Assembly (NCBI GenBank): GCA_022616555.1
Contig: JAKEEG010000012.1
Coordinates: forward strand, 8,263 to 72,262
DNA: 64,000 bases
Source of the DNA: Ignavibacteriota bacterium
GTDB lineage: Bacteria; Bacteroidota; Ignavibacteria; UBA10030
Direction: 5' to 3'
Shown: positions 2,664 through 44,534 of the stretch, piece by piece
Layout of the letters: the number at the start of each line of letters is the position of its first letter
How positions within the stretch are numbered: position 1 is the stretch's first letter
Notes under the pieces: generated by a model
Seen by the model: only the letters and a program-made list of their open reading frames with translations
Database searches by the model: none
Told to the model about the DNA's origin: nothing
Made by a program: the position numbers and the translations under genes

Positions 2664-4169
2664 ATGTCGAGCAAACATCAACACGATGGTAAAGTAAACG
2701 GCGCGCGGCGCGGCGAACAGCTTCTCAAAAAATTGCGCGAGGATTCTCCCGAAATTTACTACGCGGGCGAGCGCGTGAAAGACGTCACCACACACCCGGC
2801 GTTTAAGAATGGCGTGCAAAGCCTCGCGGCGCTGTACGATTTGCAATGGAAACAACCGGACGTGATGCTCTACGATTCCCCCGCCTCCGGCAAAAAGGTT
2901 GGGCGCTCATTCATGATTGCGAAGACGCACGACGAACTCCGCAGCGTCAGCAAAATGATGAAAGCGTGGGCGGACGCGAGCTTCGGCATGATGGGTAGGT
3001 CGCCTGATTATTTAAATCGTGCGATGACGGCGTATGCCTCTGGGGTGGATTTTCTCATTCAGGCAAACCCGAAAGTCGGCAAGAACGCTCGTACCTATTA
3101 TGAGTATCTCCGCGAAAACGACCTATGCTTGACCCATACTCTCATCACACCGCAAGCGAACCGCGCTGTCAACACGGCAAAGCAAGCCGACCCCTACCTC
3201 GCCGCGCGCGTGAAGGAAGAAACCGACGCCGGTATCGTCATCCGCGGCTGCCGCATGCTCGCCACGCTTCCCGCAGCGGATGAAATCATGGTCTTCCCTT
3301 CTACTCTGTTGAAAAATCAGGAGGAGGACGCCCCCTATGCATTCGGGCTTGCGCTGCCGACAAACACGAAAGGACTGAAATTCCAATGCCGCGAGGCAGT
3401 CGACTACGGGCACTCACACTACGACCATCCTCTTGGCTCCCGGTTCGAGGAAATGGATGCTGTCGTGATCTTTGATGATGTGTTCGTGCCGTGGGAGAAT
3501 GTCTTCCTGTATCGCGACGTGAAAAGCTGCAACGAAGCCTATGCCCGCACGGGCGCAATCGTGAACATGTCGCATCAGGTCGTGGTGAAGAACATCGCGA
3601 AAACGGAATTCTTACTCGGCTTGACATCGCTCATGGCGCATACGATTGGGATTGAGACATTTCAGCATATTCAGGAGAAAATCGCCGAGATTTGGGTAAA
3701 CATGGAGACAATGAAAGCATTCCTTCGCGCAGCCGAAGCCGACGCAACGCTCGATGAATACGGTACGATGCGACCGGCGTGGAATCCGCTTGATGCAGCG
3801 CGCAATCTCTATCCACGATTGTACCCCCGCATGGTTGAAATCATTCAGCAGATGGGTGCGAGCGGGCTTGTTGCCATGCCAACCGAAGCAGACATGAACG
3901 GTCCGCTCTCCGAAGAAATCCAAAAATATTACCAAGCCGCACGTGCAGACGCGCACGAGCGCATCCCGCTATTCCGGCTGGCGTGGGATGCTGCGCTGTC
4001 TGCATTTGGCTCGCGGCAAGTACTGTACGAGCGGTTTTTCTTCGGCGACCCTGTACGGATGGCTGGAGCGCTCGTCGCCAATCATGACCGCACAGCCTAT
4101 ATGGACCGCGTGCGCGAGTTTCTCGCCCGCGCCAAGGAAGAAGCGGCTGCTGAAGCGACGAAATCGTAA
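2664..4169 (+). CDS. hpaB: 4-hydroxyphenylacetate 3-monooxygenase, oxygenase component
   Basis: GRSPDY, THTLITPQANR, RFEEMDAVVIFDDVFVPWENVF, RQVLYERFF. AAGGAG RBS upstream. Confidence 0.93.
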   Translation: MSSKHQHDGKVNGARRGEQLLKKLREDSPEIYYAGERVKDVTTHPAFKNGVQSLAALYDLQWKQPDVMLYDSPASGKKVGRSFMIAKTHDELRSVSKMMKAWADASFGMMGRSPDYLNRAMTAYASGVDFLIQANPKVGKNARTYYEYLRENDLCLTHTLITPQANRAVNTAKQADPYLAARVKEETDAGIVIRGCRMLATLPAADEIMVFPSTLLKNQEEDAPYAFGLALPTNTKGLKFQCREAVDYGHSHYDHPLGSRFEEMDAVVIFDDVFVPWENVFLYRDVKSCNEAYARTGAIVNMSHQVVVKNIAKTEFLLGLTSLMAHTIGIETFQHIQEKIAEIWVNMETMKAFLRAAEADATLDEYGTMRPAWNPLDAARNLYPRLYPRMVEIIQQMGASGLVAMPTEADMNGPLSEEIQKYYQAARADAHERIPLFRLAWDAALSAFGSRQVLYERFFFGDPVRMAGALVANHDRTAYMDRVREFLARAKEEAAAEATKS

Positions 4170-38772: not shown

Positions 38773-38886
38773 ATGCTTTCAAGAATACGAAATCGCATCG
38801 AAACGACTGCAGCAAAATTAACGGACGGTCACGTCTCCCTCCTACTGTTCCTCGGCTATGTTGCCCTGAGTCTCGTAAAGATATGA
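38773..38886 (+). CDS. 37-aa ORF, probable out-of-frame N-terminal TM helix of the next gene
   Basis: MLSRIRNRIETTAAKLTDGHVSLLLFLGYVALSLVKI*. TGA overlaps ATG 38883. Confidence 0.45.
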   Translation: MLSRIRNRIETTAAKLTDGHVSLLLFLGYVALSLVKI

Positions 38887-40043
38887 GGGCATACCTCGAC
38901 TCAGGCCGTTTTTGGGCTGAAGAGGGCAAAGTCTTTTATGCGGACCTGGTCAATATGCTGTGGTACCAGAGTATCGGATATCTCTATAACGGTCATATCG
39001 AATTGATCACCAACCTTATCGTCTATCTTTCTACGCTAGTGAGTTTCGAAAATGCGCCTCTTATTACCACGTACGGCTCATTTTTTGTTCAATCAATCCC
39101 TGTTCTCTTTGTGATCATACAGAGAAAACATTTTGCCCATCATTGGTTAGGGATTATTGTATTTCTTTTCGTCATTCTCGGCTTAAGGCAGAGCGCCGAG
39201 GTCTGGGCAAATTCCGTTAACTTGCATTTTCATTTCGCGTTGCTGGCTGCCCTGGTCCTCGGCAAACCGTTGGTCGAAGAAACACCCGATTGGACATCAA
39301 GAATCCTGCTTGCGCTCTCGGGCTTGAGCGGGGTTCCTGCAAATTTCCTCACACCGCTCTTCTATGTTGCTGCCTACCGCGAAAGGAATCGAGAGAGGAC
39401 GATACAAGCATTCATTTTGTCGGCAACAGCCATACTCCAAATAGCACTGATTCTCACCCATCAATCGGCAATTGAAAGCCGATTTCTCTCCTTCAATATT
39501 CTTACCTTTTGCTCTGGACTCCTTTCTCAGCAGATGATTTCACCTTTTTTCCCGGCAAATGCCGCAAAGTACCTCATCAATGCTCTCAAGGACCTGCCTG
39601 GCTCTGGATTCGAAGGATGGTTGACGTTTTCAGTTTTCTTAGCTTTGTACGGTTGGCTATTGTCGTACCTTTACAGGTCGCGTTCCGTTGTGGCAAAGTA
39701 TCTTGGCGCAGGCGCTCTCTTGATGGCAATTGCTTCCGTGCTTACTTCTCTGGGCGATAAGTCTCTTATGCTCTCTCTCGATGCATCAGGAAGATACTTT
39801 TTCGTCCCCAATTGCCTTCTTTTCTTGGCGTGGATTGCTACGCTGCAACATTATCGGAAACCTGCGCTAAGAATTGTCATGTTCATCATCGTCCTTATTT
39901 TCGCGGATCGGGCAAATGCCTATATCCATGGCAAACCTTGGAAAACCGCTCTACAGGAATCAGTAGAACAAAACAAGGAAAGCGTTGAAATATGGCCCAC
40001 GGAATGGACAATGAAGAAACCGCCCATTACATCCAGACCATGA
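38883..40043 (+). CDS. Polytopic membrane protein, possible GT-C-type glycosyltransferase
   Basis: RFWAEEG acidic loop, Y.GHIELITN, EVWANSVNLHF, GRYFFVP. Many TM helices. Confidence 0.6.
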   Translation: MRAYLDSGRFWAEEGKVFYADLVNMLWYQSIGYLYNGHIELITNLIVYLSTLVSFENAPLITTYGSFFVQSIPVLFVIIQRKHFAHHWLGIIVFLFVILGLRQSAEVWANSVNLHFHFALLAALVLGKPLVEETPDWTSRILLALSGLSGVPANFLTPLFYVAAYRERNRERTIQAFILSATAILQIALILTHQSAIESRFLSFNILTFCSGLLSQQMISPFFPANAAKYLINALKDLPGSGFEGWLTFSVFLALYGWLLSYLYRSRSVVAKYLGAGALLMAIASVLTSLGDKSLMLSLDASGRYFFVPNCLLFLAWIATLQHYRKPALRIVMFIIVLIFADRANAYIHGKPWKTALQESVEQNKESVEIWPTEWTMKKPPITSRP

Positions 40044-40116: not shown

Positions 40117-40124
40117 AGAACTTG

Positions 40125-40197
<73 letters not shown>

Positions 40198-40212
40198 GTG
40201 TTTAGGATAGGC

Positions 40213-40241
40213 AATATACCAAGAAAACAACAGATAGTCAA
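40213..40241 (-). promoter_or_regulatory. tRNA promoter
   Basis: TTGACT (40241-36)-N17-TATATT (40218-13), about 15 nt upstream of the tRNA. Confidence 0.75.
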
Positions 40242-40303
40242 GGCATACCACACTATCCTTCTAACACTGCAGGAGGGAAAGCCCTCACAAATATCTGAAC
40301 ACG

Positions 40304-41674
40304 TTATTCTAACGCCAGCTTCGTGCCGGGAGCAAGCTTGCGTTTTCCGTCCGGCGTCTCTTTCTCCGTCACTTCCATCTTCAACTCCGTGAGTGTCGCG
40401 AATTCAGGGTAAGCAGACATCCCGTGTTCGCCGACATCAAGTCCCTCACGCTCTTCTTCCGCCGAGACGCGGATACCGAGAGTCACTTTCAAGATGTACC
40501 ATAAGATCAACGCAGCCGTGAAGACAAACACACCGACCACTGCGATACCGATAAGCTGGCTCATGAGAAGCGATGTTCCGCCGCCGAAAAATAAGCCGTC
40601 GCCCGTTGTGCCCGGTGTGAAGCGGTCTTCTGCGAAAAGCCCCAACGCAAATGTGCCGAATATACCGTTCACAAGATGCACAGACAGCGCTCCCACCGGA
40701 TCATCGATCTTGATACGATCGAAGAATAGTACTGCTGGAACTACTAACGCTCCGGCAATTGCGCCGATGATGAGTGAGCTTTCGACGCTCACAAATGCAC
40801 ACGGCGCAGTAATCGCCACTAAGCCCGCGAGGCAGCCATTTATCGTCATGCTCAAATCCGGTTTACCGAGCATTATCCATGCAAGAATGGTTGAACTCAA
40901 AATTCCCGCAGCCGCGGCGCTGTTGGTGGTGATCGCAATACGAGAAATGGATTCCGGGTCTGCCGCCATCGTGCTGCCGGGGTTGAAACCAAACCACCCC
41001 AGCCAGAGCACGAACGCACCAATCGTTGCCAGCGGCATACTGTGCCCGGGAATAGGATATACCTTGCCTGACACGAACTTGCCAATACGTGGACCGAGCA
41101 CAATGACGCCAGCGAGCCCTGCCCATCCGCCAACGGAGTGTACTACTGTAGAGCCTGCAAAGTCCCAAAATCCCAAGCCTGCAAGCCAACCCCCGCCCCA
41201 GATCCAATGACCCGTAATTGGATAAATCAACAGCACCAGAAAGAACGAGAAGACGATAAACGAGATATACTTTATTCGCTCGGCAATCACACCTGAGACG
41301 ATAGTTGCTGCAGTACCCGCAAAGACCAACTGAAAGAAAAACTTCGCGAGCAACGGTACAGTTGCCCACCCGATCGAGCTGTACACACCCTGATAGGCGT
41401 CGCCGGTCGCAGGGCTGTTATCTGCGCCGCCAATACCGAAGAGTCCTTCGGTACCCATGAATCCATTGCCGTCCCCAAACATCAATCCCCAGCCAAGAAA
41501 CCAGAACGCGAGAGACGAGATGGCGAACACAATAAAATTCTTCGAGAGGATGTTCACAGCGTTTTTCATTCTCGTAAAACCCGACTCTACCATGGCAAAT
41601 CCCATATTCATAAAGAACACGAGCATTGCCGTGAAGAGCACCCAGAGGGTGTCAAAAATTACCTTTTGGTCCAT
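40304..41674 (-). CDS. amtB: Ammonium transporter
   Basis: FFMNMGFAMVESG, DFAGSTVVH, WFGFNPGS, NGCLAGLVAIT, DDPVGALSVH (twin His present). Confidence 0.95.
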   Translation of the reverse strand: MDQKVIFDTLWVLFTAMLVFFMNMGFAMVESGFTRMKNAVNILSKNFIVFAISSLAFWFLGWGLMFGDGNGFMGTEGLFGIGGADNSPATGDAYQGVYSSIGWATVPLLAKFFFQLVFAGTAATIVSGVIAERIKYISFIVFSFFLVLLIYPITGHWIWGGGWLAGLGFWDFAGSTVVHSVGGWAGLAGVIVLGPRIGKFVSGKVYPIPGHSMPLATIGAFVLWLGWFGFNPGSTMAADPESISRIAITTNSAAAAGILSSTILAWIMLGKPDLSMTINGCLAGLVAITAPCAFVSVESSLIIGAIAGALVVPAVLFFDRIKIDDPVGALSVHLVNGIFGTFALGLFAEDRFTPGTTGDGLFFGGGTSLLMSQLIGIAVVGVFVFTAALILWYILKVTLGIRVSAEEEREGLDVGEHGMSAYPEFATLTELKMEVTEKETPDGKRKLAPGTKLALE

Positions 41675-41745: not shown

Positions 41746-42825
41746 TTACAGATTGCAAAAGACTTCGAGCGAAAGCGTGCTGGAATTCTTTGCCGTTCCG
41801 GTTTTCTTGATGAATACCTCTTGATTGGCGTTGTCGAAACGGTATTCCACTCGGAATGTGATGCCATCGTATTTGAACGCAGGTACAACAGTGACGTTGT
41901 ACGCGGCGAGCCCGGGTGCACCCGTTCGTGCCCCTTGGTCGTCCGCAAAATACTCGGCTCGTAAGCCCAAATCGATCGTTGACGAGAGCGGGATAACCGG
42001 CTGGAGACCAAACCCAAACCACTTGGTATCAACGCCGCTGAATGTCTCGGTCCCATAGTTCACTTGAAAATTCAGTGCGATACCCGGAATGGATTTCGTG
42101 ACGCCCGTGAGATCGATGGAGTTCCGGGCATCGCTCGAATTCACCTGCTCGACACCATACGAATGTGAAATTCCGAACGCAAGCGGATCGCCAAGGTTGA
42201 ATCCAAGTCTTGAAATGATCGTCTTATCCGGGTTATTGTCAACCAACAGGTCCCAGCCATTCACGACACCGACCTTAATATCAAACGAGCCGGAAGGGAT
42301 AATATTCACAAAACCACCGACATGAGTAAATGCTTCAGCCAAGCCGAACAGATATCCTCGTGAAATTGTGGGATTTGCGGGAGATTCGATCAGTTCAATC
42401 CCCTGAAAGGTGACGAACTTTCCTCCGGTAAACGTCACCTGGTCGGAAAATGAATACACGAGGTATGCCTCTTGGACATCAACTGCAACCGGTGTAGCGC
42501 CAAGCCCCGTCTGGTGCAACAAACCGTGTACAGCTGCGTCGGTTCCAAAATCAAACTCCGCCACATAGCTTAATTTCTCTGACGGCGAACCGGATGCGAC
42601 GACATGGATATTATTCAACAAAATCTGGTTCGCCCTTGCGTCATAGGAACGCAGGGAGTTCGTCGTACCGCTGCTCAGATTATAATTATACGATGCATCG
42701 ATAAAACCTGAAAACGTCAATCCGCCCTCCTCTTGGGCGACTGCCGGGACAACTGCAACAAGCATTGCCGGAAGCACGAGGAGCACAACGCTTCGGCCTG
42801 CTGCTCGAAGAAAAAATGTCTTCAT
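41746..42825 (-). CDS. Putative outer-membrane beta-barrel porin
   Basis: Signal peptide, FSGFIDASYNYN, DVQEAYL, GGKFVTFQGIELIES, GLRAEYF, FRVEYRFD. Confidence 0.75.
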   Translation of the reverse strand: MKTFFLRAAGRSVVLLVLPAMLVAVVPAVAQEEGGLTFSGFIDASYNYNLSSGTTNSLRSYDARANQILLNNIHVVASGSPSEKLSYVAEFDFGTDAAVHGLLHQTGLGATPVAVDVQEAYLVYSFSDQVTFTGGKFVTFQGIELIESPANPTISRGYLFGLAEAFTHVGGFVNIIPSGSFDIKVGVVNGWDLLVDNNPDKTIISRLGFNLGDPLAFGISHSYGVEQVNSSDARNSIDLTGVTKSIPGIALNFQVNYGTETFSGVDTKWFGFGLQPVIPLSSTIDLGLRAEYFADDQGARTGAPGLAAYNVTVVPAFKYDGITFRVEYRFDNANQEVFIKKTGTAKNSSTLSLEVFCNL

Positions 42826-43027: not shown

Positions 43028-43402
<375 letters not shown>

Positions 43403-43410
43403 TCAGCTGC

Positions 43411-43439
43411 TTGACTTTCGCCGTCACCGATGCTATATT
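43411..43439 (+). promoter_or_regulatory. Consensus sigma70 promoter with extended -10, divergent from glnK
   Basis: TTGACT (43411-16)-N17-TATATT (43434-39) with TG at 43431-32. Same hexamers as the tRNA promoter. Confidence 0.7.
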
Positions 43440-43445
43440 CGCGAC

Positions 43446-43607
43446 GAGCAGGTTGAACGCAAAAAACGCCCGCGCATTGCCCTTGGGCAATGACGCTGTA
43501 TAGCATGCGGCCGTCAAAACGGTTGCACTGCGACAAAAGTCCTACCCCACGGGAACGCGCCCCGTTCACACGCGTGAGGTACGATTGGCGGTTGCCTCAA
43601 CTTGCTC
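43446..43607 (+). ncRNA. Candidate ~162-nt structured non-coding RNA of unrecognised family
   Basis: Begins 7 nt after the -10. GAGCAGGTTGA (43446-56) pairs with TCAACTTGCTC (43597-607). Four internal hairpins. Followed by TTTCTATT. Confidence 0.6.
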
Positions 43608-43700
43608 TTTCTATTACCGTTCTTCTTGTATTCCTTAATTTATTAAGGATTTATAGTATAATTACTTAACAATTAAAGTAATTTCTAATATCACATTCCG

Positions 43701-43729
43701 AATATAAGGTACCGCCAGAGCGTTGTCAA
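43701..43729 (-). promoter_or_regulatory. Consensus promoter pointing toward glnK, with upstream A-tract
   Basis: TTGACA (43729-24)-N17-TATATT (43706-01). T12 run on + (43733-44) is an A-rich UP-like tract on -. Confidence 0.7.
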
Positions 43730-43814
43730 GGGTTTTTTTTTTTTATTATTTTTTTGTCTCATACAACTACGTTGTTTATGTTAACTTATGCTTCATCCGA
43801 AAGGACAAACGACA

Positions 43815-44534
43815 ATGGATAAACAACAACTTCAGAGCGCTTTTATTACGGGATTCAGTCTTTTCCTTGGCTTGACCGTGCTCGGAATTCTCTTGGGCAA
43901 TGCCGCAGTCAGGTTCAAATCGTTCGAGCGCGCTGTCGTCGTCAAAGGCTTATCCGAGCGTGAGATTCCTGCCAACATCGTTATCTGGCCCGTCACGTTT
44001 CAGGACGCGAACAACAACCTAACCACACTGTTCGAATCGATCCAGAAAAAAAGCTCGCTGGTGATCGATTTCATGACCAGTCATGGCATTACGCGTGAAG
44101 AAATCACCATTGCTCCCCCGGCGGTGGTAGACCGCTACGCGCAAACCTACGGTAGCACCGAGCGCGTCAGCTTCCGCTACACGGCGACGTCGACCGTTAC
44201 GGTGTACTCAACAAACGTTGATCAAGTCCGGAAAGCGATGTCCGCTATTATCGATTTAGGGAAAAAAGGCGTGGCAATTTATGGCGAGGATTATCGGAAC
44301 AGGACGCAGTTTCTGTTTACGGGGTTAAACGACTTGAAGCCAGCTATGATAGAAGAAGCAACAAAAAATGCCCGTGCAGTGGCCGAAAAATTCGCACAGG
44401 ATTCTGAAAGCGAGCTCGGGAAAATTAAATCGGCGCTACAAGGACAGTTCTCTATTGATGATCGGGATGCTACCACCCCGCACATTAAAAAAGTGCGCGT
44501 GGTTTCAACGGTGGAATATTATCTTTCGGATTGA
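43815..44534 (+). CDS. SIMPL-domain protein
   Basis: N-terminal TM, VVVKGLSEREIPA, KPAMIEEATKNARAVAEKFA, QGQFSI, KKVRVVSTVEY. Confidence 0.82.
   Translation: MDKQQLQSAFITGFSLFLGLTVLGILLGNAAVRFKSFERAVVVKGLSEREIPANIVIWPVTFQDANNNLTTLFESIQKKSSLVIDFMTSHGITREEITIAPPAVVDRYAQTYGSTERVSFRYTATSTVTVYSTNVDQVRKAMSAIIDLGKKGVAIYGEDYRNRTQFLFTGLNDLKPAMIEEATKNARAVAEKFAQDSESELGKIKSALQGQFSIDDRDATTPHIKKVRVVSTVEYYLSD

Follow-up and report, generated by a model that had tools for sequence, protein, structure and literature searches.

Gene content and signals around the glnK-SIMPL intergenic gap

The window analysed here is a 64,000-nucleotide stretch (64 kb) of an Ignavibacteriota genome, in which an operon of glnK, a BBP2/OmpL-like porin gene and amtB is read on the minus strand and a SIMPL-domain gene on the plus strand, the overall gene order being tRNA-Met, amtB-porin-glnK, the element described below, SIMPL-TonB and DinG (Table 1). 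The stretch has a match in an Ignavibacteriota-type MAG contig (GCA_973857345.1). The intergenic gap between glnK and the SIMPL gene measures 420 bp and is AT-rich (24-33% GC), except for a patch of 55-60% GC at ~43440-43610. This patch coincides with a structured RNA core that is preceded by a predicted promoter on the plus strand and faced by a predicted operon promoter on the minus strand.

Two observations concern the flanking genes. The SIMPL open reading frame probably starts at ATG 43815 rather than at 43788, giving a protein of 239 aa as in nearly all homologs; its nearest named homologs (~62-68% identity) come from Steroidobacteraceae and other Gammaproteobacteria, while relatives in an Ignavibacteria context are few, which suggests that the gene was acquired horizontally. 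At the other end of the region, a 386-aa open reading frame adjoining tRNA-Met (38883-40043, plus strand) gave no Pfam match.

Table 1 Coordinates of genes, predicted signals and RNA structural elements in the window
Feature	Position	Strand	Basis or remark
tRNA-Met	40124-40197		ARAGORN; sole tRNA reported by ARAGORN
amtB	40304-41674	-	Pfam Ammonium_transp, 2.8e-125; after porin
BBP2/OmpL-like porin	41746-42825	-	Pfam BBP2, 1.9e-48; after glnK
glnK (P-II)	43028-43366	-	Pfam P-II, 1.8e-34; first gene of operon
glnK Shine-Dalgarno (SD) AAGGAGG	43372-78	-	Precedes glnK
Predicted antisense-RNA promoter	43411-43439	+	-35 TTGACT 43411-16, 17-nt spacer, TG 43431-32, -10 TATATT 43434-39
Structured RNA core, 162 nt	43446-43607	+	Minimum-energy fold and covariance-model matches
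P1 closing stem, 11 bp	43446-56 with 43597-607	+	Minimum-energy fold
P1a (GCAA/UUGC)	43459-62 with 43592-95	+	Extends P1
P1b (CGCC/GGCG)	43467-70 with 43587-90	+	Extends P1
Arm A	43472-96	+	Enclosed by closing stem
Arm B	43497-535	+	Enclosed by closing stem
Arm C	43538-86	+	Enclosed by closing stem
Most conserved block, CACGGGAACGCGCCCCGTTC	43548-43567	+	Holds arm C inner hairpin
Arm C inner hairpin	GAACG 43553-57, loop CGCCC 43558-62, CGTTC 43563-67	+	Homolog comparison
U-rich tail, TTTCTATT	43608-43615	+	Directly after 3' strand of P1
AT-rich spacer, 24-26% GC	43616-43700		Between RNA 3' end and operon promoter
A/U-rich hairpin, TCCTTAAT-TT-ATTAAGGA	43632-49		Inside AT-rich spacer
Predicted operon promoter of glnK-porin-amtB	43701-43729	-	-35 TTGACA 43729-24, 17-nt spacer, -10 TATATT 43706-01
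SIMPL-domain gene	43788-44534	+	Other side of gap from glnK

A compact fold outside the known RNA families

The core folds with a minimum free energy of −72.9 kcal/mol (z −4.43), and 0 of 200 shuffled sequences folded as well. A first-pass annotation, made from the letters of the window alone, had drawn an 11-bp stem extended by GCAA/UUGC and CGCC/GGCG, together with hairpins CATTGCC-CTTG-GGCAATG and TGCGGCCGT-CAAA-ACGGTTGCA, and all of these are part of the minimum-energy fold. Its two smaller hairpins, ACGGG/CCCGT and TCAC/GTGA, had to be given up, as the homologs described below support a CACG/CGUG helix enclosing GAACG-CGCCC-CGUUC (43548-43567) instead.

The suggestion that the structure is novel held when known families were searched. 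With Rfam 15, 6S RNA included, there was no match to the window at gathering score on either strand, and a relaxed search (E<=10) of the 551 nt at 43300-43850 returned nothing relevant, neither 6S RNA nor a glutamine riboswitch. In the homologous loci L003, L006, L007 and L040, a search at E<=1 found no 6S RNA and no RF01739 or RF01704. ARAGORN reported no tRNA or tmRNA at the element; the first-pass annotation had recognised no tmRNA or glnA riboswitch motifs there. Nor does the element behave as a repeat in the DNA searched: it occurs once in the 64-kb window and once in each homolog locus, and blastn in distant mode found no match to it in plasmid and phage collections. The element is a conserved, structured RNA missing from Rfam and a member of a small RNA family for which we found no prior description in the literature.

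Other interpretations of the patch were discarded on the way. A conserved small open reading frame is ruled out, since every member has stops in each of the six frames. The GAAC-N-GTTC motif was rejected as a transcription-factor operator because its spacing varies (6, 7 or 8), which argues for an RNA hairpin rather than an operator, and an integron attC-like site was rejected by eye, the inverted core motifs standing in the wrong order. Between the start of the RNA and glnK, a sigma-54 promoter was considered and dropped, since GG-N10-GC is seen by eye in the window and L043 and not in L040.

Predicted face-to-face promoters and a U-rich tail

A consensus scan of the region detected 4 sites resembling promoters, as compared with 1.4 +/- 1.1 in shuffles, and the predicted antisense promoter scores 10/12 in it, with an extended -10. 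Its predicted +1, G43446, is the first base of the 11-bp stem, and its hexamers and spacing are those of the tRNA-Met promoter (TTGACT-17-TATATT), both as first noted. At the other end of the core, the antisense RNA probably ends in the region of the U-rich tail. This tail is not called by the terminator scan, and its U-rich stretch follows a long-range stem, not a local hairpin. All five full-length family members, GC-rich L003 included (TTTGTTTTCA), are T-rich over the 10 nt that follow P1 (34 T vs 11 A in total), and there is no such bias on the other side. A promoter with its +1 on the first base of P1 and a U-rich tract after P1 thus predict a compact, end-paired RNA of ~165 nt with two to three internal arms.

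The opposing promoter that had been proposed on the minus strand is present as well, scoring 11/12 and reading across the element toward glnK, with a minus-strand A-tract (T-run 43733-44 on the plus strand) just upstream of its -35. The predicted start of the operon transcript lies near 43694, which gives a 5' UTR of ~328 nt containing the full complement of the antisense RNA. Operon transcription would cross the whole RNA gene as well as the promoter of that gene on its way to glnK, and the two transcripts would therefore be perfectly complementary over ~165 nt of leader, upstream of the ribosome-binding site. The same annotation had further read GCGGGCG-TTTTTT on the minus strand as the end of the element on that strand. 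This minus-strand sequence is there, but it is not a terminator: the scan does not call it, and its U-run is not conserved, being missing in L040 (GGCTTGTTCGC) and L043 (GGCGTTATTGC).

Homologous elements precede nitrogen-uptake genes in other Ignavibacteriota

The glnK loci closest to the window (L040-L042, GlnK 88%) have a DinG helicase gene, a 770-bp gap and then glnK-porin-amtB. A single-sequence covariance model (R1) matched the gap at L040 with a score of 89 bits (E 1e-20), with the same result for L041, L042 and L045. The matched strand is the one opposite glnK, so that element and gene are oriented to each other as they are in the window. L043 (GlnK 95%) holds the promoter and the first 91 nt of the element, which is cut at its 3' side by the contig end (38 bits). 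Among the porin-anchored loci from GTDB genomes, blastn, nhmmer and model R1 found nothing, and the distant members were detected only by a three-sequence model (R2) with filters off. These are L003 ('Bacteroidota bacterium MFD09378', 24.5 bits), with a full-length element between amtB and porin-amtB; L006 (Melioribacteraceae, 24.4 bits), with the element before an open reading frame that runs off the locus end and is listed as a NarK transporter; and L007 (Rosettibacter primus 4148-Me, 18.2 bits), with the element at L007 5272-5416 before narK, a gene 86 nt from the element 5' end that reads away from it and encodes a NarK-family nitrate/nitrite transporter (TIGR00886, 317 bits, above cutoff).

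A third model (R3), built without L040 and L007, recovered these two at 70 and 66 bits, respectively, and over ~280 kb of loci found nothing beyond the known members, the other Ignavibacteria loci searched being without the element. A hand-made descriptor for RNAs of 120-180 nt that are closed by a 10-bp stem, contain AAC...GTT internally and run into a T-rich stretch matched the members on the antisense strand only, along with three chance matches. Of the matches to a conserved 19-mer in a metagenome scan, one was a true locus with the sequence of L040 and four were due to chance, so the 19-mer block is evidently not kept outside the L040 clade. The resulting set, all from Ignavibacteriota and ~140-167 nt in length, comprises five full-length sequences (window, L040, L003, L006 and L007) and one partial sequence (L043), and covariation statistics are therefore thin.

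Position and orientation are constant. The elements stand the same way round before glnK-porin-amtB, porin-amtB and narK. In every lineage the RNA begins at a distance of 80-245 nt from the start codon of the nitrogen-uptake gene (glnK, porin or narK) and is directed away from that gene. In the window, L040, L006 and L007, which represent four lineages, the element sits between the nitrogen gene and its predicted promoter; in L003 it is intercistronic, and a promoter upstream of the element on the gene strand was not found there.

Both sets of transcription signals recur. On the antisense strand, the GC-rich members (window, L043, L040 and L003) share a TTGAC(T/A) -35, a 17-nt spacer and a TAnnnT hexamer 6-7 nt before P1: TTGACT-17-TATATT in L043 and TTGACT-17-TACATT in L040, each 6 nt from P1, and TTGACA-17-TACTTT in L003, 7 nt from P1. 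These four score 9-10/12. In the AT-rich L006 and L007 a -10 hexamer (TATATT and TATTTT, respectively) stands 5 nt before P1 and the -35 is weak, and with scores of 8/12 and 7/12 these promoters are not called by the scan. On the gene strand, the operon promoter region forms an aligned block (AATATAAGGTAC...TTGTCAAG), with TTGACA-17-TATATT in L040 (11/12), TTGACA-17-TATAAT in L007 (12/12) and TTGACA-17-TATTTT in L006 (10/12). It is found 90-105 nt beyond the RNA 3' end in four of the five full-length members (window, L040, L006 and L007), where the spacer counted from its predicted transcription start to the element measures 87-104 nt, and no other promoter was seen in these between it and the start codon. 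The position of this promoter makes it very likely that the gene strand, too, is transcribed across the element.

Conservation of the fold rather than of the sequence

The elements of the window and L040 are 69% identical (118/171), and the block at 43548-43567 is identical in both. When the window, L040 and L043 are aligned, 93.8% of cells pair, and 6 pairs are changed on both sides as compared with 0-1 in slid controls. P1 covaries at five of its 11 pairs (1, 2, 9, 10 and 11), for example from UUGA/UCAA to UAAG/CUUA, and its outer pairs (GAGCAGG/CCUGCUC-like) are kept across the five full-length members. Further compensatory changes occur in arms A and B, which vary in length and number, with three arms in the window and L040 but only two in the L006 and L007 folds. 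Arm C keeps an inner hairpin in which (G)AAC pairs with GUU(C) around a loop with GCC: the window and L040 have GAACG-CGCCC-CGUUC, L006 and L007 have GAAC-CGCCAA-GUUC, and L003 has UAACGU-GCCU-ACGUUA. Compared with shuffles, the antisense strands of the full-length members reach z values of −4.4, −6.9, −7.4, −9.5 and −8.0, and the minimum-energy and centroid folds of all members are multi-branch junctions with two or three arms.

The element and its neighbours

Most porin-anchored loci from GTDB genomes differ from the window in gene order, and the closest loci show which neighbours the element keeps. L028, the closest syntenic SIMPL-TonB locus (SIMPL 81%, TonB receptor 80%), has tRNA-Met and its promoter directly beside the SIMPL gene, with an AT-rich spacer and with neither the glnK operon nor the element, whereas L040-L042 have neither SIMPL gene nor TonB receptor. 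The element therefore travels with the glnK operon and not with the SIMPL gene. The tRNA-Met and its promoter (TTGACT-17-TATATT; window 40124-40261, minus strand) are 86% identical to L028 1-108. In the window a 3.4-kb block of amtB-porin-glnK plus element separates tRNA-Met from SIMPL-TonB, and in L040 DinG adjoins the element instead. These differing neighbours in L028, the window and L040 imply that the nitrogen-uptake cassette has been moved or lost repeatedly.

We also note that the BBP2/OmpL-like outer-membrane porin, whose relatives are named Melioribacteraceae and Ignavibacteriaceae, sits inside glnK/amtB operons of many Ignavibacteria-type genomes (L003-L011, L040), in the orders amtB-porin-glnK, glnK-porin-amtB and glnK-amtB-porin-amtB. 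It bears no NCBIfam name and may have a role related to ammonium.

The DinG-glnK gap of L040 contains features of its own. A second GC-rich stretch (L040 3340-3500) has several strong hairpins and a terminator-like site at 3409-3434; it has no Rfam match and is absent from the window. At L040 3599-3618, a perfect palindrome, GTCTTGAC-GTTT-GTCAAGAC, is followed by T7 and overlaps the -35 of the operon promoter. This palindrome could serve to stop antisense transcription as a backstop terminator, or it could be bound by a regulator; it is not kept in the window, where the T-run alone remains. Separately, the top-scoring match to the window GlnK is P0241 (L039 43-591), a 182-aa P-II protein with two partial P-II matches that lies in an unrelated context, beside a periplasmic binding protein.

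A candidate family of cis-antisense RNAs in nitrogen-uptake leaders

The predicted signals place the RNA gene on the strand opposite the operon, within its 5' leader, divergent from and near the regulated gene, which is the arrangement of a cis-encoded antisense RNA. The first-pass annotation had proposed an RNA antisense to the glnK-porin-amtB leader with its own promoter, and had tied it to nitrogen uptake; the predicted signals and the orientation of the homologs support the first proposal, and the same-way-round homologs before porin-amtB and narK the second. Our best explanation, to which we assign a probability of roughly one half, is that the elements constitute a new family of cis-antisense small RNAs, each forming a convergent-promoter module in the leader of a nitrogen-uptake operon of Ignavibacteriota. 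A convergent-promoter cassette is the simplest account of all the signals. Reading from the operon promoter, an AT-rich spacer would be followed by the gene for the structured antisense RNA, placed within the leader, and then by a Shine-Dalgarno sequence and a nitrogen-uptake gene.

Such a cassette could act in several steps. Polymerases from both promoters would collide over an overlap of ~250 bp. Both transcripts would fold into mirror-image stem-loops, and the folded antisense RNA would then pair with the mirror-folded leader, beginning at complementary hairpin loops; the conserved arm C loop is a likely starting point, with CGCCC or CGCCAA set against GGGCG or UUGGCG. The resulting duplex would lead to cleavage or premature loss of the operon transcript, and this loss would set the level of GlnK, porin, AmtB or NarK. 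Simple translational occlusion is excluded, since the ribosome-binding site lies outside the stretch complementary to the antisense RNA. The analysis shows the sequence signals and their conservation, the compensatory changes and the gene context; from these we infer the firing of both promoters, the direction of regulation and a dependence on nitrogen status.

The main rival, possible but less likely, is that the functional molecule is the gene-strand mRNA leader, acting as a riboswitch or as a binding site for a nitrogen-responsive protein, with the antisense promoter incidental or secondary. Control of glnK-amtB and narK would then be exerted after initiation from a constitutive near-consensus promoter. 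The gene-strand promoter is indeed the better conserved of the two (11/12, 11/12, 12/12 and 10/12), and its closeness to consensus suggests that no activator is needed, leaving regulation to the long 5' UTR. As with riboswitches, the element precedes non-homologous genes of one regulon (glnK, porin-amtB and narK).

Folding itself is even-handed between the two strands. The gene strand folds equally well, its energies lying within 2 kcal/mol of those of the antisense strand (z −3.7 to −8.5), and G-U pairs are more numerous in its minimum-energy folds (19 vs 12). Two positions of arm C that are C-A or A-C mismatches on the antisense strand can form wobble pairs on the gene strand. In P1 the reverse holds, its four wobble pairs all being G-U in the antisense RNA and A-C mismatches if read on the gene strand. 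As far as modelled energies and wobble counts go, thermodynamics does not separate the strands. The transcription signals favour the antisense transcript, because a conserved -35/-10 stands before P1 and a T-biased tail after it. A leader acting by itself does not explain why that -35/-10 lies exactly before P1, nor the T-biased tail or the four P1 wobble pairs. The leader also shows no expression platform: no gene-strand terminator follows the element in the window, L040, L006, L007 or L003, the sole gene-strand U-run, that of the window, is not conserved, and conserved anti-Shine-Dalgarno pairing was not seen. Junctions and arm number vary, with only P1 and one hairpin kept, unlike a ligand-binding core, and there was no match to the Rfam glutamine riboswitch models. 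It is unlikely, in our estimate, that the mRNA-strand fold represents a new class of nitrogen-status sensor, either a riboswitch or a dock for a P-II-controlled or nitrogen-responsive protein, which would gate ammonium and nitrate uptake, possibly as a two-strand switch together with the antisense RNA.

We consider it improbable that the RNA is a trans-acting or housekeeping small RNA, such as the atypical 6S RNA that had initially been offered as an alternative, and merely adjoins nitrogen genes. A strong promoter with the hexamers of the tRNA-Met promoter, a compact RNA with paired ends and a conserved loop with C-rich sequence that could pair with Shine-Dalgarno regions would all suit such an RNA. 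The lack of 6S matches in the window segment and the homologs speaks against it, as does a multi-branch junction fold in place of a rod with a central bubble. Its constant orientation and placement in nitrogen-gene leaders would be unexpected for a free-standing gene, and the other Ignavibacteria loci searched lack the element.

Highly improbable is a non-functional relic, be it a MITE bounded by inverted repeats of 11 bp, a site of recombination or a piece of decayed coding sequence at a rearrangement junction. The region is rearranged between relatives (L028, L040 and the window), and the patch has a GC content like that of coding DNA and inverted repeats at both ends; yet it is single-copy in the 64-kb window and in each homolog locus and missing from the plasmid and phage collections, no target-site duplication or flanking direct repeat is visible at the window element, the reading frames are closed in every member, compensatory changes keep the helices at 69% identity, and the position relative to promoters and start codons is conserved. 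Finally, a 5' leader of the co-directional downstream gene, likewise raised at the outset because the antisense-RNA promoter points at the SIMPL gene 370 nt away, is scarcely credible, as the other element loci (L003, L006, L007 and L040) encode no SIMPL gene, the SIMPL-anchored loci, among them L028 with tRNA-Met in that place, lack the element, so that the two are not linked, and the U-rich tail, AT-rich spacer and opposing promoter separate element from gene. We accordingly reject 6S RNA, a repeat element and a SIMPL leader as readings of the patch.

Relation to known systems and significance

Among known systems, the proposed cis-antisense family most resembles the DonS-type RNAs of Bacteroides, whose host belongs to the same FCB superphylum as Ignavibacteriota. 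As described in PMC7366714, which cites Cao et al. 2016, DonS-type RNAs are cis-antisense RNAs that are divergent from susC genes and repress their operons. By that account, the likeness extends to a small RNA gene placed divergently a short way upstream of the gene that it regulates and running antisense to the leader of that gene, to one family placed before several operons of one functional class (envelope uptake systems), and to a negative effect on its own operon, the same effect being proposed for the nitrogen-uptake element. Compared by description, DonS RNAs are 78-128 nt long and serve susC glycan uptake (PMC7366714), whereas the members of this family are 140-167 nt long and accompany glnK, porin-amtB or narK. 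The Bacteroides promoter type also differs from the sigma-70-type TTGACA/TATAAT promoters of the element loci.

In their layout, the elements recall plasmid countertranscripts: two promoters that face each other and overlap over ~200-250 bp, a stable antisense RNA, highly folded, that mirrors the stem-loops of the target leader, with pairing likely to start at complementary loops, and an effect upstream of the coding region through interference, attenuation or cleavage. Convergent-promoter countertranscripts of this type include prgQ/prgX Anti-Q of pCF10 and, in plasmid copy control, CopA/CopT and RNAI/RNAII; they are plasmid-borne and control replication or conjugation. The nitrogen-uptake element differs in being chromosomal and concerned with nutrient uptake, and no attenuator terminator was seen downstream of the overlap.

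Glutamine riboswitches (glnA RNA, RF01739, and Downstream-peptide RNA, RF01704) are likewise structured RNAs in nitrogen-assimilation leaders, including those of ammonium transporters, and are hosted by cyanobacteria and marine metagenomes rather than Ignavibacteriota. The element has no match to their covariance models, is ~2.5 times larger and has a variable architecture of two or three arms. With 6S RNA (RF00013 and relatives) it shares its approximate length, a long stem that joins the 5' and 3' ends, and a strong promoter, and it differs in its branched form, the lack of a model match, its tie to nitrogen-gene leaders and its absence from the related loci searched.

To our knowledge, the control of nitrogen uptake in Ignavibacteriota has not been studied previously. 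Near-consensus and seemingly activator-independent promoters, long structured leaders and an opposing RNA gene together suggest that ammonium and nitrate transport in these bacteria is set at the RNA level. If confirmed, the element would add a new RNA family to Rfam and would be, as far as we know, the first regulatory RNA described in the phylum. It would also be a chromosomal case of a portable convergent-promoter antisense cassette that is reused across a regulon; if the leader strand were instead the sensor, it would represent a new class of nitrogen-responsive RNA.
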